This document shows, piece after piece, positions 3,923 to 48,262 of a DNA stretch of 48,262 nt. How positions within the stretch are numbered: position 1 is the stretch's first letter; each line of letters begins with the position of its first letter. Origin of the DNA: Shigella phage Sd1; the sequence record MF158042, one strand, 5' to 3'. Under the pieces are notes generated by a model. That model worked only from the letters and a program-made list of their open reading frames with translations. It was not told the origin of the DNA and did not search any database. The position numbers were made by a program, and so were the translations under genes.

Positions 3923-3965
3923 ATAATACACCACCTCACCGATTCGTCTTTAGCAATTCGTGCTA
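3923..3965 (-). promoter_or_regulatory. Palindrome-type promoter P2 (tagcaattcgtgcta, 22-bp spacer, TATTAT)
   Basis: Same architecture; site overlaps VRR-NUC stop codon. Confidence 0.55.
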
Positions 3966-4382
3966 TTTTGAAATCATTTCTTTGAATGCCGCAAGAAAAC
4001 CTTCACGCCCATAAGCCACAGCTGCGAAACCCCCTGCTTCCCTTACGCTTTTTAAGAAAGCCTTTTGGTCTTCACTGACTGGACTAGCCTGAGTTTTTCC
4101 CGCCCTCTTTAGCTCTATAGCTCCAAATGGATATCTTCCTCGCAATGATTCAGGTATCAGAAAAAAGCAATCTGATACGCCCTTAAGGAGGCCTTTTGCC
4201 GCATCCTTTCTGGCTGCGCACATTGATTTCTTTCCCTCATTAACGGTATGCCAATAGAGAATCTGAGGGTGGTTATACTTAACCCAATCAGAGCAAAAGA
4301 TTTGTTCGTCATCCTCCTTTGGGCATGACTTAACCGGGCCCTGGTAAAACTCAATGTAATCCTCTTTATCTGTAATTTTCAT
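3963..4382 (-). CDS. VRR-NUC domain nuclease
   Basis: Translation contains GVSDCFFLIPE...GAIELKRAG...SEDQKAFL pattern typical of VRR-NUC; start at MKITDK with ggagg SD. Confidence 0.6.
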   Translation of the reverse strand: MKITDKEDYIEFYQGPVKSCPKEDDEQIFCSDWVKYNHPQILYWHTVNEGKKSMCAARKDAAKGLLKGVSDCFFLIPESLRGRYPFGAIELKRAGKTQASPVSEDQKAFLKSVREAGGFAAVAYGREGFLAAFKEMISK

Positions 4383-7969: not shown

Positions 7970-7995
7970 TACCTGAAAGATGCTACAATCCAACT

Positions 7996-8010
7996 TAGCA
8001 ATTCGTGCTA
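7996..8010. promoter_or_regulatory. Palindrome site S3 (tagcaattcgtgcta) 25 bp upstream of tailspike start
   Basis: Perfect copy of the palindrome but no -10 at the usual plus-strand spacing; possible operator or antisense promoter. Confidence 0.35.
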
Positions 8011-8034
8011 TTTTACAAATGGAGACTTTACACA

Positions 8035-13830: not shown

Positions 13831-14189
13831 TTTTGTATATCGCTGTAAAACGCACCAAAATACGTTTTGCGACTCAGTACGCCGCATGAATGCTGAATGT
13901 AACTCTTGTAACCAATGTATCCACCAATTTTGCACCCTATCTATATCTATATGCATTTCCTCCTTAACAGGAAATCAAACATAGTCTTTTATAAAAACAT
14001 ACCAACATAGCTATAGAGAGTAGTTACAAGATATACATAGTAATATATATAATAATAATAATACTCTAAAACCTTATTATATAAGGATTCTATAGTGTAA
14101 CTAATGCGTATCTGTGCGTAAAAAGCGTATACAATTTTCTGCGGATGAGATTGTATACATCGAGTTACATCGGTTACGCGTATATAAAA

Positions 14190-14233
14190 TAGCACGATTT
14201 GCTAAAGACTACCGCATCAGCCTTTGCTATAGT
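14190..14233 (+). promoter_or_regulatory. Palindrome-type promoter P6 (tagcacgatttgcta, 23-bp spacer, TATAGT)
   Basis: Followed by leader tactccatcgaaacgaaac and ATG at 14274. Confidence 0.55.
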
Positions 14234-30736: not shown

Positions 30737-32212
30737 CTATGCGAGAGGTTTGCTTAGGTTTTCCACCTTATAAGCGTAAACGCCTGCCAAAGTATCAGAT
30801 GAGTTCCTTATTCCAACTATTGTAAGCTTGAAGCATTTAGAGTCAGCCGTAGCTCCTGGTGATGTGGTTATGTAATGCTCAGATGTGACTCCAAAAACGC
30901 CTGGCTTGAATACGCTATTCCAAAGAGCGGCCCCAGGAGGCATGCTTGTTACTATCGCTGTGTAGTTTTTCAACTTATCAGCTGCAACTGTAGTGAGTGA
31001 GTCAATCTGGTATGCAGTGTGCCTTATTGAAGCGATATTTGCTGTACCAGTATTACTAACACCAACCCATAAACCCTTGGCTGGAACTGTGGCGTTCTTC
31101 TCTCCGGTAAGGGCGAACCTTATTGTTGTCTCTCCGGGTATATCTATAAAGTCAGTATCCGTCTGATTGATCAACCCCGACCTTACGCCTGAAGCTACGT
31201 TATAAGAGGCTGGACCAGCCACCCCCTGTAAGCCCTGAGGTCCCGTAGGGCCCTGCAATCCACGCTCACCCTGCGGGCCTGCCGGGCCTTGTGGTCCAAC
31301 TGCACCAGCTACACCTTGTAAGCCTTGCGGGCCGGCTGGGCCTTGCTCACCTTGCAGGCCCCTCTCGCCTTGTGGGCCTTGAATACCTTCCGGACCTGTC
31401 GGGCCAGTTGGGCCTGCTGGACCAGCGGAACCCTGTGGGCCTGGGGCACCCTGTGCGGCCAGTAACTCCCAGGAATCGCTAACATCTGGATTTTCTCCGG
31501 TCACGGCGGCGGTAGCAAACCAGCTAGAGTTGTTAAATGTAACGACATCATCTTTAACGTAAGCTGTCGCAGCGTCGTACATCCCGCGGAATGTTAAGCC
31601 TGCCGGACCAACTGGACCCGCATCACCTTTATCACCTTTAGGGCCGGCCGGACCTGCTGCGCCGGTTGCACCGATAGGGCCTTGCGGACCAGACTCGCCA
31701 GTTTCACCTTGAGGACCTTGCGGGCCTACGGGGCCAGCTGGACCAGTGTCGCCTTTGGCACCTGCCGAGCCTGCCGGGCCGGTAGCACCTGTTGGGCCTT
31801 GAGGACCCTGTGGACCAATAGCTCCTGCCGGGCCCGCTGGACCCTGTGGACCAACCGGACCTTGCGGGCCTGCTTCACCTGAGCCTCCTTCTTCATCACT
31901 TACAAAATCACCTTTCGCCAGCGCTGAAAGATAAGCACCATCTTCGAAGTGGGCATTGCCAAACCTGCGCCAGCCCTGGGCTAGATATCTGTTAACCCTG
32001 TTAACTAATCCCTGAATTGTGGTATCGGATGTCACCATGAAGTCTTCAACGTTGTTTGCTGTTCCTTTCGCCATCTTCATGCCAAAGAGGGTGCCGCTCA
32101 GCATCTGCACGTCGCCATATGGCTGGAATCCTGATGAAATCATGATTTTTACGTTTCTGGCTAAGATTTCAGGTGAATTCCCTACTGCCATAGCAATTTC
32201 TGTGTAAGCCAT
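30737..32212 (-). CDS. Collagen-like repeat protein (two Gly-X-Y tracts)
   Basis: Two long uninterrupted G-X-Y runs ([16 protein letters not shown]... and [22 protein letters not shown]...) flanked by globular N- and C-terminal domains; aggag SD. Confidence 0.8.
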
Positions 32213-36943: not shown

Positions 36944-36986
36944 ATTATACGCCATCCCTGGCGATTGTATTTAGCAATTCGTGCTA
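36944..36986 (-). promoter_or_regulatory. Palindrome-type promoter P7 (tagcaattcgtgcta, 22-bp spacer, TATAAT)
   Basis: Perfect palindrome overlapping TerL stop codon, consensus -10, leader caactcatcaaaacgagagg. Confidence 0.6.
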
Positions 36987-38564
36987 CTTCACTCCAGCTA
37001 GTCGCATCAACCTGGCCCTTGGGTCATCACTTAAGTTCAACTCACAGTTGATTGCCATTGTTGTAGTATCGACAATGTCATCATGCGGATGTGAATCGTC
37101 AGCAGTAAACGCAGAGAACTCAGTTAATAGCGAAGTAAGCCATGGCGCAGAGTCTGGAAGAACTACGTTACCAGCCTTAATCTGTGGCAATGCGCTCATC
37201 ACCCTGGTTAACTTATCTGTATCAGGAACGAAAGGATCGATAGGAGTTCGCATTGTTCGGCCTGCTGACTGGATAAGGCCGATACCAGACGCCTTCTTCT
37301 CTATAATAACCTTGCGCAAGATTCCATCTGTTTTACTGGTGGCTCTGTGCTTGCTCTCAAAGTCAAGAAGAGCCTGCTCAAGCTCTGGAGCCTCCCATTT
37401 GCCTCTTACCATATCCAGAAGGTAAAGCTTGTTACCCTTACGTCCCCACAACTGAAATACAGAGTAGTCGCTATAACTCTTCGTCGTCATGGCGGTATCA
37501 GCCGTAATGAAGCGGTAGTCATACTTGACTGGCGGCCTGTTATTCTCATCAAGACGAACAAACCAATCGACGTTTATCAGGTTTCCACCTAGAGCTACTG
37601 GAGATTGTTGGTACTGGCTTAGGAATGTGTACGGGTCTGAATCCCACATCGCCACTAAGTCATGCACAGATTCCTTTTGCGGGAAATAGCTATAGTACTT
37701 GACCCCATCGCGCTCAACTGATTCAGATGACAGGACGTCCCTTTCGAATTGCTCACGAATCCAGTCAGGAAGGTCATTCACGTAATCTTCAGTAACCAGC
37801 GCCGGTATTTTAACCACATCAAAGTCGATACCCATGCCTCCAGAAGTCATGAACCACGTTGAATCCTGCGTATGAAGCCTTTGCTGAATTGACAGAATCG
37901 GCGTAGCTTTACCTTTAACACTGCTAGCCCTACGAGAACGGATGGTGTTCTTGAGTAAAACGTGTACAGCTTCACGCCTAACCTTGCTGAGCATATCGTC
38001 TGGCTTGTCTGGGTCATCAAGCATCAAGCAGCCACTATAAGTTTCAGTAATATAACCGCCACGCGCACCAGTAATCTGACCGCCAATTGCTTTCGATATA
38101 GCTTCGAATCTAACCTTGCCACTCCCATCAAGAACCTGAATCTCGTCATCTTTGCACGTACCGAACTTACAGGGCCATAGCTCCTGAAACTCAGCTGACT
38201 TGATAAGGTCGCGAACTCGCTTTGAGTTACGCTTCACGAGGCTATCGGAGAATGAAAGGCTCAGGTTTCTCACTTTCTTTAGCTTAAGCATTGAGTACAC
38301 CGGAAAGTGGATTGAAGTAATCTCAGTTTTACCGGCCCCGGGAGCTACGTTAATGATAGTATCCCTACGCTCCCCGCTGATAACCTCGTCAATGATTCGG
38401 CAAAGGTACTTATGATGCCAGTTAGGGATGTATCGCTCGCCTTGAGTTAACTGAAACCACACCCGAAGGAATGCTTCAAAGCTATGAGTGGATAACGCCT
38501 TAATTGCCAGCTTTTCGGCTGGCGTCATATCTTCCCAAGCTAGTGTATTCATAGTACAAGCCAA
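36984..38564 (-). CDS. Terminase large subunit
   Basis: Walker A NVAPGAGKT, Walker B-like LMLDDPD, C-terminal nuclease-like acidic residues. Confidence 0.7.
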   Translation of the reverse strand: MACTMNTLAWEDMTPAEKLAIKALSTHSFEAFLRVWFQLTQGERYIPNWHHKYLCRIIDEVISGERRDTIINVAPGAGKTEITSIHFPVYSMLKLKKVRNLSLSFSDSLVKRNSKRVRDLIKSAEFQELWPCKFGTCKDDEIQVLDGSGKVRFEAISKAIGGQITGARGGYITETYSGCLMLDDPDKPDDMLSKVRREAVHVLLKNTIRSRRASSVKGKATPILSIQQRLHTQDSTWFMTSGGMGIDFDVVKIPALVTEDYVNDLPDWIREQFERDVLSSESVERDGVKYYSYFPQKESVHDLVAMWDSDPYTFLSQYQQSPVALGGNLINVDWFVRLDENNRPPVKYDYRFITADTAMTTKSYSDYSVFQLWGRKGNKLYLLDMVRGKWEAPELEQALLDFESKHRATSKTDGILRKVIIEKKASGIGLIQSAGRTMRTPIDPFVPDTDKLTRVMSALPQIKAGNVVLPDSAPWLTSLLTEFSAFTADDSHPHDDIVDTTTMAINCELNLSDDPRARLMRLAGVK

Positions 38565-38658: not shown

Positions 38659-39174
38659 TCATAGCTTCTCCATAATAGATTCAAGTGCGGCCTTCATAGC
38701 TTCCTCGTCGTTAACTACCGCATTAGAAGCGTTGTTGATGTTAACCTCTTGCGGCTTGTCGATACCAAGGTCTTTGCCAATCAGTCCAGGGTTGACGATG
38801 TTGTTAACACCCAGCTGATACTTCTGCTCAAAGATGACCGAATCCACAAACTCCATCACCTCATCGAATCCAGGCGAAGATCGCCATTTACTAATGGCAT
38901 TATGACCTACACCGCAGAAAAGCTGGAAGCCAGTTATCGTAAATACTCTCGGCTTGTGAATAAGGTTTTCTGTTACGACGCCCTGAAAGCTAGCCGTTTC
39001 AATGGCCTTAATCGCTTGCTCTTCAGCCCAGCTGAAATACCTGACGGCCATGTCGAATACCTGTTCAGGGGTGTACCTGTGGTTAATCTTCAGATTGGCA
39101 ATATCGCCATACTTCTTGTTATACAGCTCCTTGAAGTTTCCTATCTTCTGGTGAATCTTTTTCTCTTCTGGCAT
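38659..39174 (-). CDS. Putative terminase small subunit
   Basis: Position immediately upstream of TerL; 171 aa. Confidence 0.4.
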   Translation of the reverse strand: MPEEKKIHQKIGNFKELYNKKYGDIANLKINHRYTPEQVFDMAVRYFSWAEEQAIKAIETASFQGVVTENLIHKPRVFTITGFQLFCGVGHNAISKWRSSPGFDEVMEFVDSVIFEQKYQLGVNNIVNPGLIGKDLGIDKPQEVNINNASNAVVNDEEAMKAALESIMEKL

Positions 39175-39219
39175 GTGATATTCCTCCTGTTTTAAAAGTC
39201 ATTGTACCATGAGTACGGA

Positions 39220-39246
39220 CGAAAAAAAGCCCTCACTAGGAGGGCG
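39220..39246 (-). terminator. Rho-independent terminator upstream of terminase genes
   Basis: gccctc...gagggc stem followed by TTTTTTTC on the minus strand. Confidence 0.6.
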
Positions 39247-39273
39247 AAGAACTACATTGCGAGATTACCAATC

Positions 39274-39459
39274 TCAAACGAGGGATACTTTATCAACGCT
39301 GACTTTGTGGACTTTCAGGTCGATCTTAAATGCTGCCTTTGCAGCTGAAACTGCTTCTTCAGGGCTGTTAGCAAGAAACCTACCTTCGTAGGATTGCTGG
39401 CAAGATTTGCATTGCCTTCCCATTAGGCGGGAAGTTAAACGGACTTCGTAGTTATTCAC
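39274..39459 (-). CDS. Hypothetical protein (GTG start)
   Basis: ORF with ggag SD 8 nt upstream of GTG. Confidence 0.3.
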   Translation of the reverse strand: MNNYEVRLTSRLMGRQCKSCQQSYEGRFLANSPEEAVSAAKAAFKIDLKVHKVSVDKVSLV

Positions 39460-39475
39460 TAGGATGCTCCATGAT

Positions 39476-39551
39476 TGGCGTTCCGCGCTGGACTCGAACC
39501 AGCAACTGAGACTTAGGAGGTCTCTGCGTTATCCTGTTACACCAGCAGAAC
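39476..39551 (-). tRNA. tRNA-Arg (anticodon CCU)
   Basis: Manual fold: acceptor GTTCTGC/GCGGAAC, D-arm GTGT/ACGC, anticodon stem GAGAC/GTCTC with loop CTCCTAA, T-arm GCTGG-TTCGAGT-CCAGC, discriminator G and encoded CCA. Confidence 0.6.
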
Positions 39552-39556
39552 TTAAT

Positions 39557-39630
39557 TGGCACGGGATGTTGGAATCGAACCAACCTCTTTGGTTTTGGAG
39601 GCCACTATTCTACCAATGAACTAACCCCAT
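39557..39630 (-). tRNA. tRNA-like gene, possible tRNA-Trp (anticodon CCA); anticodon stem non-canonical
   Basis: Acceptor ATGGGGT/ATCCCGT with two G-U pairs, D-arm GTTC/GAAT, T-arm GTTGG-TTCGATT-CCAAC, encoded CCA; anticodon stem has only 3 Watson-Crick pairs. Confidence 0.4.
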
Positions 39631-39911
39631 TTTGTTAGATGCCGGTTACGGAATCCGGCGAGCTTTCACAATGCTCCGACTATATCGAGTTACCACATCG
39701 ATTGGTTCGCTTCGCGAAGTTCTCAATGCATAACTGCGGTTTATTTGCCTCGTATCTTTACCCAGCCCGGCTATCGGCTTGCATCTCCGCGATGCGCGTT
39801 ACGGTCATTGCCGTCTACGTGGTTAATACTAACCACTTTTAACATTTACGTCAAGCCATGACGACGAAATAAATCCAAGTCAACATGCCAGCCAGTAGCC
39901 AGATTGATAGC

Positions 39912-40151
39912 TCAGTCATAAATGTTACTCCCATCTTCACGCTTACCGCAGCGTCCTGCCAGATAACCGGAAACCCAAACGAAGCGCATCTTCTCGATGA
40001 TTGTACTGACTGGGCTATGGAACTCACAGATAACCGCCTTCATGATGTCGTTATCTTGCTTCTGCTTGCTGGTTAGCTTATCCACTGCCTCGTTTAGCTT
40101 CTTAGCCTGGGCGCGCACTGCGTTGAATTGTGGTTGAGTAAGTCCGAACAT
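39912..40151 (-). CDS. Hypothetical protein
   Basis: ORF. Confidence 0.4.
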   Translation of the reverse strand: MFGLTQPQFNAVRAQAKKLNEAVDKLTSKQKQDNDIMKAVICEFHSPVSTIIEKMRFVWVSGYLAGRCGKREDGSNIYD

Positions 40152-40912: not shown

Positions 40913-40955
40913 ATAGTATCGCATCCTTGCGATTGATGTTTAGCAATTAGTGCTA
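40913..40955 (-). promoter_or_regulatory. Palindrome-type promoter P8 (tagcaattagtgcta, 22-bp spacer, TACTAT)
   Basis: Same architecture. Confidence 0.5.
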
Positions 40956-40956
40956 T

Positions 40957-41292
40957 TTACCAAGGAAGGCCGTCTTCCCATTCGTAAGTATCAGACCTTT
41001 TTTCTATGAATGAATTATTTACTTTCATCATATCCCCGCTAACCACAAATCTTTTATTTTTCTTATTAATATCCTTATGAGCGTATAGCTCCTTAGCTTT
41101 CTGCAGTGACTCAATTGAGTCATCAATGTCAGTGAGGTAGTCTTTATGTCCGCGTAGACCTGTACATAGCATCTTCTTGATTGCGTGCTGAGTTGCTGGG
41201 TCTGTTACCTGGAATGCATCCAGAACGCGATATACATCAATAGTAGTTACCGTGCCATCCAGACCAATAATCTCTCGGTTGTACTTACTCAT
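40957..41292 (-). CDS. Hypothetical protein
   Basis: ORF. Confidence 0.45.
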   Translation of the reverse strand: MSKYNREIIGLDGTVTTIDVYRVLDAFQVTDPATQHAIKKMLCTGLRGHKDYLTDIDDSIESLQKAKELYAHKDINKKNKRFVVSGDMMKVNNSFIEKRSDTYEWEDGLPW

Positions 41293-43937: not shown

Positions 43938-44617
43938 AAAAGGTAATTTACTGCCTGTTTGATGGTTCAGGTATCGCTGGCCTGCCATGGGCTGAGAATG
44001 GTCACACAGTCTACTGCTTCAACGCGGACTCAGGTAATCATGGCGAATATCACATTAAGATGCAGCATGAGAATATCCACTATATCAACATGTGGATTGA
44101 TAAGGATTTCATCACTAAGTGCGAATTGCTCGGGCTTCCTCCGGCGCAGATGGTTATCGGCTTCCCTGATTGCACGCTGTTCTCTCAGTCAGGATCACAG
44201 CATGAGCGGGGTGAAGATGAACTGGCGTACGCCCTGGCTAATGCTAAGCTTGTCGAAGAGGTTGGCAATCACTTTAATGCTCCATGGATGGTTGAGAATC
44301 CGGTAGGTAAGCTGTCAACTCTATGGCGTAAGCCTGATTTCTATTTCAACCCGTATGAGTACGGAGGGCTAATGAATGCTCATGATCTGCCGTACCACGA
44401 AAAAATGCCAAAATACGACGGATACACCAAGAAAACTTGCATCTGGCATGGCAACGGATTCGTTGAGCCAGTGAAGAATCCCGGGCCGATTAACATCGGT
44501 TTCTTTTGGGGATGGAAGTACCTCGGCGGGAAGTCTGCTAAGACTAAGCAGTTGCGCTCACTGACTCCACGTGGATTTGCGCGCGCCGTATACCTGGCGA
44601 ATCATTTAACCAAATAG
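43934..44617 (+). CDS. Compact DNA methyltransferase-like protein (C5-cytosine MTase-like motifs)
   Basis: Motif I-like LFDGSGIAG near N-terminus, motif IV-like GFPDCTLFSQSG, motif VI-like ENPVG; no DPPY/NPPY seen. Confidence 0.45.
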   Translation: MKKVIYCLFDGSGIAGLPWAENGHTVYCFNADSGNHGEYHIKMQHENIHYINMWIDKDFITKCELLGLPPAQMVIGFPDCTLFSQSGSQHERGEDELAYALANAKLVEEVGNHFNAPWMVENPVGKLSTLWRKPDFYFNPYEYGGLMNAHDLPYHEKMPKYDGYTKKTCIWHGNGFVEPVKNPGPINIGFFWGWKYLGGKSAKTKQLRSLTPRGFARAVYLANHLTK

Positions 44618-44657
44618 CACGAATTGCTAAAGCCCTTCGGGGCTTATGCTGTATATT
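44615..44657 (+). promoter_or_regulatory. Palindrome-type promoter P11 (tagcacgaattgcta, hairpin in 22-bp spacer, TATATT)
   Basis: Site overlaps MTase stop codon; spacer contains agccc-ttcg-gggct hairpin; leader catatcatcgaaacgaaac. Confidence 0.55.
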
Positions 44658-47728: not shown

Positions 47729-48195
47729 AACTTAATCTCCGCGTTACGCCTGTTAACCAGGCCTTTGCTAACAACCTTCTTCCCACCAACGGTGATTTTA
47801 TTCCACATGGAGAATGCATCGCATCCGCCTAGGATATCACCACGATTCATCCGCCTGATAACCGTTGAGTTACGCATTGCGTTAGTGCCAATATTGTATG
47901 ACAAGCTGTAGAGTGCCGCCCTGGTGCTTACCGGAACATCCACTTTTAAAGCCTTATCTACTGCCGCCTTATGGATTGCAAGGTGCTTCATGAGAAGTGC
48001 GTCGCACTCGCGCTTTGTGTATACCTTCCCTGGAATAACGTCTGAACCAGTGATGCCTGCGCAAATAGTCCACACCCCAGCAACATCCCTGTAAGGCCTG
48101 TACTCAACACCCTCATGCTCATTCAGGAATGGAACCGCCAACGCCATTGCGCCAGCTACAGCCGAACCAATGACCTTATTCTTGATGCTCATCAT
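47710..48195 (-). CDS. Endolysin (phage lysozyme with N-terminal SAR-like signal anchor); 5' part also present at 1-249
   Basis: N-terminal weakly hydrophobic Gly/Ala-rich segment KVIGSAVAGAMALAVPF followed by EGVEYRPYRDVAGVWTICAGIT lysozyme-type catalytic region. Confidence 0.7.
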   Translation of the reverse strand: MMSIKNKVIGSAVAGAMALAVPFLNEHEGVEYRPYRDVAGVWTICAGITGSDVIPGKVYTKRECDALLMKHLAIHKAAVDKALKVDVPVSTRAALYSLSYNIGTNAMRNSTVIRRMNRGDILGGCDAFSMWNKITVGGKKVVSKGLVNRRNAEIKLCVSEL

Positions 48196-48262
48196 TTACT
48201 CCTGATTCTCATTGCCTCGCGAATGTCGCCATCCTCAAGTGCTTTATGGAGCGCTTTACTGT
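47947..48262. repeat. Second copy of the terminal duplication (equals 1-316)
   Basis: Same as above. Confidence 0.9.

Follow-up and report, generated by a model that had tools for sequence, protein, structure and literature searches.

Shigella phage Sd1 encodes two adjacent tRNAs just upstream of its terminase genes: a tRNA-Arg(CCU) already known from related phages, and a newly acquired tRNA-Trp(CCA) of a natural class, with one extra mismatch in its anticodon stem. The finding is real but largely ordinary. In the best explanation, to which we give somewhat better than even chances, both are genuine tRNA genes that the phage would carry as cargo where its packaging and late region begins, one supplying the decoding of AGG and the other being a working, recently gained Trp tRNA.

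Genome and Organization of the tRNA Module

The window analyzed is the whole record MF158042, with a length of 48,262 nt. Bases 1-300 are duplicated exactly at 47947-48246, and the record thus represents a complete genome with a terminal overlap, which is either an assembly product or a terminal redundancy. Based on record comparison, Sd1 is a T1-like siphovirus of the Drexlerviridae, subfamily Rogunavirinae. Among the records, Shigella phage Sf12 comes closest, with 91% identity across roughly half of an 18-kb query; Rogue1, JK06, C119, phiKP26, phiEB49 and the Opt-79 group are next.

ARAGORN identifies exactly two tRNA genes in the whole genome, both on the minus strand. They belong to a compact module with the following features, from the upstream to the downstream end:

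39851..39919, minus strand: 22-aa hydrophobic ORF, MTELSIWLLAGMLTWIYFVVMA (sequence; alignment)
39826..39854, minus strand: sigma-70-like promoter, TTGACG-17 nt-TAGTAT (consensus scan)
39741..39825, minus strand: non-coding block, ~85-90 nt and nearly invariant, following the promoter-like site (alignment)
39683..39740, minus strand: variable part of the leader with palindromic ATCGA...TCGAT (alignments, with indels and replacement between relatives)
39641..39678, minus strand: two-hairpin element (covariation; RNAalifold; covariance model)
39557..39636, minus strand: inserted segment of 80 nt, AACAAA plus tRNA-Trp (multiple alignment against all relatives)
39557..39630, minus strand: tRNA-Trp(CCA), 74 nt, CCA encoded (ARAGORN; Rfam RF00005)
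39552..39556, minus strand: 5-nt spacer ATTAA between tRNA-Trp and tRNA-Arg (sequence)
39476..39551, minus strand: tRNA-Arg(CCU), 76 nt, CCA encoded (ARAGORN; Rfam RF00005)
39274..39459, minus strand: 61-aa ORF, phrog_2919 (ORF list; PHROGs E = 1.6e-28)
39222..39245, minus strand: intrinsic-terminator-like hairpin GCCCTCCTAGTGAGGGC (hairpin 39245-39229) with a T7 run (scan)
39201..39209, minus strand: putative extended -10 promoter-like site TGgTACAAT before terS (read from the sequence)
38659-39174, minus strand: terS (phrog_606, PF16677), followed by terL on the same strand

The proposed unit would run from the promoter through the leader, the two-hairpin element, tRNA-Trp, tRNA-Arg and the 61-aa ORF to the terminator. 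The protein encoded by this ORF has a weak similarity (E = 0.03) to the metal-binding MxCxxC domain found in copper ATPases. The terminator-like hairpin is a member of a family of terminator-like repeats (D13) and is directly followed by the extended -10 site and then by the ribosome-binding site of terS, which appears, from these signals, to have its own promoter. The tRNA unit looks like a self-contained transcription module, and its layout matches the "transcripton" proposed for the late region of T1, in the form in which this proposal is quoted in PMC11447400. The position upstream of the terminase genes, which had been reported in an earlier note on this DNA, is borne out by the 61-aa ORF, terS and terL, all downstream on the same strand.

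Elsewhere in the genome, an intergenic family of 20-21-nt repeats, AAATAGCACnnnTTGCTAAA, follows the direction of transcription in its orientation (for example at 3950-3969, 7995-8014, 14187-14207, 36971-36990, 40940-40959 and 44612-44632), and some copies are part of a longer unit of ~63 nt. Its consensus is the same as that of the 21-nt repeats reported for phage TLS (PMC11447400). The family is probably what the earlier note named "hub A". Collagen-like Gly-X-Y triplet repeats are located at 31194-31780 on the minus strand, within a 491-aa ORF (30737-32212) that is named differently in relatives, being a "DNA polymerase" in Sf12 and a "collagen-like protein" in Opt-719.

The Conserved tRNA-Arg(CCU)

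The two minus-strand tRNA genes had been placed by the earlier note at 39476-39551 and 39557-39630, 5 nt apart, which agrees exactly with ARAGORN and Rfam. The scan with ARAGORN that it had put forward as a check was run and called both genes, and both match Rfam RF00005 from end to end, with 52.0 bits for tRNA-Arg and 49.3 bits for tRNA-Trp against a gathering score of 29. The positions that sustain the tertiary structure (U8, A14, G18-G19, U33, a purine at 37 and the GTTCRA T-loop) are present in both according to the sequence and the cmscan alignment. The same is true for the 3' CCA, so that the encoded CCA previously noticed in tRNA-Trp is also found in tRNA-Arg.

The first gene had been read as a cleanly folding tRNA-Arg for the AGG codon; ARAGORN calls the CCU anticodon, and the minimum-energy fold is the cloverleaf. 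The gene is located at the same place in all eight relatives that were scanned, and 72-74 of its 76 nt are identical to the copies in C119, Sf12, Rogue1 and phiEB49. It is a conserved cargo of Rogunavirinae phages that has been published before, and there is nothing new in it. The AGG codon is generally known to be rare in E. coli. Rogue1 and JK06 share a single arginyl-tRNA for this codon, described as rare in E. coli by the same authors (PMC3496638), and "1 arginyl-tRNA" is listed for AHP24-type phages (PMC4070988). The gene of the Rogue1/JK06 type (Rogunavirus) is the same and has the same position, upstream of a small ORF and the terminase genes. Nothing material differs, except that the Sd1 copy has an extra tRNA gene ahead of it.

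Codon counts were made on a greedy ORF set of 73 Sd1 genes, with the late block defined as 16251-39459. AGG accounts for 12.0 per 1000 codons and for 177 of the 712 Arg codons (25%), and it is about twice as frequent in the late block (16.2 per 1000) as in the rest of the genome (7.8 per 1000). The cognate codon of tRNA-Arg is thus much commoner in the phage than in the host, which is the pattern of codon compensation. Codon compensation by this tRNA for the late genes is well supported; tRNA-Arg(CCU) would most likely supply AGG decoding, above all for the late genes. Compared with other phage tRNAs carried for codon compensation, the Sd1 gene fits quantitatively, and the tRNAs are likewise located at the head of the late region.

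Origin of tRNA-Trp and its Insertion Slot

The multiple alignment shows tRNA-Trp as a clean insertion. In relatives, the order is ...CCGGCA-CCTATTCTA-tRNA-Arg, with the hairpin running directly into tRNA-Arg, compared with ...CCGGCA-TCT-AACAAA-tRNA-Trp-ATTAA-tRNA-Arg in Sd1. None of the eight relatives scanned contains tRNA-Trp, and no Drexlerviridae match was found among 50,697 phage records, in which the best BLAST match is Alishewanella phage Slicko01 (83.8%). A comparison with 5,426 E. coli genomes gave no match either; the identity to host trpT is 71%, with the differences clustered in the anticodon stem. Neither IMG/VR nor the JGI metagenomes or GTDB genomes contain the exact sequence of the anticodon arm, and a donor search in these three collections and the E. 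coli genomes gave no exact or near-exact source. By these comparisons, tRNA-Trp is apparently foreign to both the host and the phage lineage and looks like a recent single acquisition. It would be a horizontal addition of recent date, set precisely between the two-hairpin element and tRNA-Arg.

The content of this slot differs among Drexlerviridae. It is empty of tRNA in 50EP, CJ19, GaoY1-9D, AAS23 and three IMG/VR contigs, holds Arg-CCU in most Rogunavirinae and in BUCT-XGG-1, and holds Arg-UCU in ESCO41. In phiEB49, Arg-CCU is accompanied by an annotated tRNA-Val(AAC) (segment 2020-2096) that scores below the Rfam threshold, and in the Opt-79 group by a tRNA-like gene whose D-loop is enlarged by a 33-nt insertion; both of these second genes are positioned downstream of tRNA-Arg. 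The one in Klebsiella phage Opt-79 (segment 2221-2319) scores 42.7 bits and has an A at position 33.

A Covarying Two-Hairpin Element and the Leader

The tRNAs of Sd1 sit directly 3' of a two-hairpin element. The first hairpin (H1, 39676-39660) consists of a GUGA loop on a 6-bp stem, in which one A is bulged. The second (H2, 39659-39641) is the GCCGG...CCGGC hairpin that the earlier note had pointed out, and it proves to be real, as it is supported by covariation. The alignment comprises 11 distinct sequences, drawn from Rogunavirinae, Nouzillyvirus and Sauletekiovirus. In it, 98.6% of cells are paired and the loops are invariant (AUUGUGAAA and AUUCCGUAA). Of the 13 pairs, 6 show changes in both partners, and one-sided changes are absent. 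This level was reached in none of 500 shuffles, and the slid controls also gave zero. Searches with the covariance model give a single hit in each genome, which scores 71.8 bits in Sd1. A tertiary contact of 2 bp between loop and flank (39678-39677 with 39650-39649) is possible from the alignment, where the covarying pair 39677-39650 rests on a single event. Because all pairs are Watson-Crick, the data fit folding of either strand, as RNA or as DNA. A loop of GNRA type on the sense strand speaks for sense RNA.

The element occurs in phages with or without tRNAs, in three Drexlerviridae clades. In the tRNA-less phages, the phrog_2919 ORF has its Shine-Dalgarno sequence and start codon 12-15 nt downstream of where the element ends. 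This position identifies the two hairpins as a 5'-UTR element, and the same layout indicates that the tRNAs were inserted between the element and the ribosome-binding site. A role in antitermination is weakened by the promoter-like site that terS has after the terminator. A 12-nt likeness between H1 and a sequence near the Trp tRNA of an IMG/VR contig was discarded as generic, since it is the D-arm of a neighboring tRNA. The Rfam tRNA model does not match the element, and an Rfam search over 39150-40000 with E up to 10 returned only the two tRNAs, with nothing for the leader or the two-hairpin element. Conceivably, the element is a new RNA that acts in cis in the late transcripts of Drexlerviridae.

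The region at 39631-39910 had been described as non-coding. This is true for about 39631-39850, which contains no conserved ORF, but not for the distal end, where the conserved 22-aa ORF (39919-39851) is found. The differences between phages in this ORF are mostly synonymous in the alignment of relatives, and its ATG overlaps the TGA of an upstream 79-aa ORF (phrog_303). In C119 and Rogue1, the same segment forms the C-terminus of a 64-aa ORF. Two further leader ORFs on the sense strand, of 24 and 16 aa, were rejected: their differences are mostly non-synonymous, and the start codon is lost in e4/1c. Over 10 phages, the promoter-like site keeps both hexamers with little or no change, while its spacer varies.

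In the nearly invariant block, none of the 28 predicted pairs is compensatory and the few substitutions break the predicted stems; no credible ORF, no E. coli match and no Rfam match was found in it. The constraint on this block is one that acts on the sequence. Candidates for its nature are a protein-binding site or a pac-type site in the DNA and a sequence-specific RNA; the TLS paper (PMC11447400) gives no site comparable to such a pac candidate. The whole leader was rejected as a stable RNA with a fold z-score of -0.97. The palindromic stretch of the variable part holds the 20-mer TATATCGAGTTACCACATCG (39681-39700), which the earlier note had taken for a motif shared with hub A. This sharing is not confirmed: no second copy exists at up to 3 mismatches, the best other matches have at least 5 mismatches in 20 positions, and the AAATAGCACnnnTTGCTAAA family, although real in Sd1, is absent from the leader.

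The Anticodon Stem of tRNA-Trp

The anticodon arm of tRNA-Trp reads GUGGC-CUCCAAA-ACCAA. Three Watson-Crick pairs make up its stem, with the mismatches G27.A43 at the top and C31.A39 at the bottom, just as the earlier note had described it, and the Rfam alignment marks 27-43 and 31-39 as non-canonical. The canonical five pairs are therefore not reached, whereas host trpT, present as a single copy in all 5,426 E. coli genomes, has a 5-bp stem and G24. In the remaining parts, the gene has a D-stem with U11-A24, a variable loop of 4 nt and an A at position 9. It carries the anticodon CCA, the discriminator G73 and A1-U72, which we take to be the identity elements of an E. coli-type TrpRS. The acceptor pair 2-71 is U2.G71 instead of the G2-C71 of four aligned Trp tRNAs. 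Both sides have changed with a wobble pair kept, which would be a sign of past selection on the structure.

The two mismatches seem to differ in origin. The same arm with G39 (GUGGC-CUCCAAA-GCCAA) exists in the Trp tRNAs of an Alishewanella phage, a marine metagenome contig and the MAG TMED88, so that G27.A43 is inherited and natural. C31.A39 alone is private to Sd1 and is due to a single G-to-A change at position 39. In a sample of 101 Trp tRNAs from IMG/VR, collected with a scan pattern that leaves the stem free, 27-43 is unpaired in 13, which is close to the 8% in bacteria, and the bottom pair is open in two; both end pairs are open in none of the 101. A24 is found in 23 of them. The doubly weakened 3-bp stem is the sole unusual feature of this tRNA. 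An earlier impression that phage Trp tRNAs mostly have 27-43 unpaired (six of eight) was dropped as selection bias of a sample picked by similarity, the stem-free sample giving 13/101. Imperfect anticodon stems of other kinds are seen in the Trp tRNAs of Providencia phage PR1 (C31.C39) and Proteus phage YP1 (A27.G43 and U29.U41).

In a 2026 survey of bacteria (PMC13092985), 27-43 is unpaired in 3171 of 38,615 tRNA-Trp(CCA) genes, a normal minority class, and about 6.5% of standard-code genomes have a sole Trp tRNA of this type. The majority of the genes with 27-43 unpaired have A9C and/or G24A as well, and the bottom pair is open in 267 bacterial Trp tRNA genes (PMC13092985). Sd1 tRNA-Trp shares the CCA anticodon and the unpaired 27-43 (as G.A) with the "Blastocrithidia-like" 4-bp-stem tRNA-Trp(CCA) of that survey. 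However, this class keeps the other four pairs and a 7-nt loop, whereas Sd1 has C31.A39, and its definition lacks A9C and G24A, whereas in Sd1 A24 pairs with U11. A24 is also present in most of the bacterial 4-bp-stem examples (PMC13092985) and places the Sd1 gene, with this reservation for the bottom pair, in the larger class of 4-bp stems with A9C and/or G24A (PMC13092985). The survey makes no mention of phages, whereas the Sd1 gene is phage-borne, and the UGA reassignment or readthrough discussed for the 4-bp-stem class has left no visible signal in the Sd1 genome.

The closest sequences, in Alishewanella phage Slicko01 and the IMG/VR contig 3300029305_003994, show 79-83% identity in global alignment. 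The contig shares the D-arm and the AGAG variable loop with Sd1, and Slicko01 shares the GUGGC/xCCAA anticodon arm. These are large, unrelated phages with many tRNAs and an intact 31-39 pair, whereas Sd1 has a single Trp gene in a 48-kb T1-like genome. The Hirsh UGA suppressor is reportedly the G24A form of E. coli tRNA-Trp. U11-A24 and the unchanged CCA anticodon are common to both; A24 is, however, the native state of a foreign tRNA lineage in Sd1 and a mutation of trpT in the suppressor, and readthrough by the Sd1 tRNA is putative.

In the nearest-neighbor model, the cloverleaf of tRNA-Trp has -13.5 kcal/mol and the minimum-energy fold, which is different from the cloverleaf, -16.9 kcal/mol. 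With G39, the predicted fold is a cloverleaf of -17.2 kcal/mol, so that A39 would cost ~3.7 kcal/mol. This predicted cost makes a weak case against a working tRNA-Trp, because the minimum-energy folds of functional relatives are not cloverleaves either.

Possible Roles of tRNA-Trp

A functional extra Trp tRNA is the most likely role, followed by a decaying passenger. The gene belongs to the natural class with 27-43 unpaired, and its private G39-to-A change also opens the bottom pair. It would probably be co-transcribed and processed with tRNA-Arg and still be charged with Trp, adding a further copy to a tRNA for which the host has a single gene. Among the options listed in the earlier note, a divergent tRNA fits best because of the 49.3 bits, the Trp identity marks and the G27.A43 shared with clearly functional Trp tRNAs; nothing supports a tRNA-like regulatory RNA.

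The demand for codons offers no reason for the gene. TGG usage in Sd1 is not above that of E. coli, and the cognate codon is thus not much commoner in the phage than in the host. TGG reaches 12.5 per 1000 codons compared with 11.7 in Sf12, which is without tRNA-Trp, and as it is not raised relative to Sf12, codon demand does not explain tRNA-Trp. The codon-usage check suggested in the earlier note thus turned out positive for AGG and negative for TGG. On present evidence, tRNA-Trp fits neither of the models for phage tRNA cargo, codon compensation or counter-defence.

The main alternative, which we regard as distinctly less probable although not far-fetched, is that tRNA-Trp came in by illegitimate recombination as a neutral passenger of no benefit and is already decaying, with G39-to-A as the first inactivating hit; the gene may then be a pseudogene in the making. 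The unenriched TGG and the codon and stop usage, unchanged relative to Sf12, are in line with this, as are the absence of a doubly opened stem among the 101 IMG/VR Trp tRNAs and the restriction of the gene to one known genome. Other occupants of the slot also look degenerate, namely the phiEB49 "tRNA-Val" and the Opt-79 gene with the D-loop insertion. Against this, the gene still scores 49.3 bits, has its conserved tertiary positions, G73, A1-U72 and CCA intact and is free of lesions in all remaining parts. Moreover, C.A at 31-39 is tolerable as a wobble-like pair, and an open bottom pair occurs in the 267 bacterial genes mentioned above (PMC13092985).

A further reading, improbable in our estimate, is a UGA-leaky tRNA, which would decode UGA as Trp more often than its host counterpart and so alter termination late in infection. 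The idea comes from the combination, in tRNA-Trp, of G27.A43, A24 (the state of the Hirsh suppressor) and a further loosened stem, and from the 24 of 73 Sd1 ORFs that stop at TGA. In E. coli tRNA-Trp(CCA), the mutation C27A, which opens 27-43, increases UGA readthrough ~2.5-fold in vivo, and it is required within the C27A/G24A/G59A triple mutant in vitro (PMC13092985). This published effect is modest, though, and was measured under overexpression, and many standard-code bacteria use Trp tRNAs with 4-bp stems (PMC13092985); A24 is common among viral contigs as well (23/101). The search for signals of UGA readthrough was negative: the TGA-terminated genes of Sd1 have no long or otherwise notable in-frame extensions, and TGA is not depleted, ending 24 of 73 ORFs in Sd1 and 20 of 73 in Sf12. 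The stronger form of the idea, a virus-borne near-cognate suppressor with unchanged CCA that is expressed from a strong late promoter and reads UGA as Trp far above the host tRNA, is equally improbable.

Least likely of all, and with very small chances, is a counter-defence tRNA whose altered anticodon arm escapes a nuclease, of host or prophage, by which the sole tRNA-Trp of the host is depleted. In the host, trpT is a single gene, and the differences from it are concentrated in the anticodon stem; however, the anticodon loop CUCCAAA is identical to that of the host, tRNA-Trp is not widespread among relatives, and we know of no E. coli nuclease that targets tRNA-Trp. Three publications (PMC10264068, PMC11555353, PMC11464382) provide the precedent of phage tRNAs that rescue infection from tRNA-cleaving defences, but the published escape changes sit in the loop.

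Significance for Drexlerviridae

As far as the searched collections show, the Sd1 gene is the first tRNA-Trp on record for the T1-like phages (Drexlerviridae). United in its stem are features for which recent work has shown that they raise the reading of UGA by tRNA-Trp(CCA) in E. coli (PMC13092985). The two-hairpin element that marks the insertion point is a well-supported conserved structure without a described family. In this position, Sd1 tRNA-Trp documents the precise gain of a tRNA gene at the site where the tRNA content of Drexlerviridae turns over.
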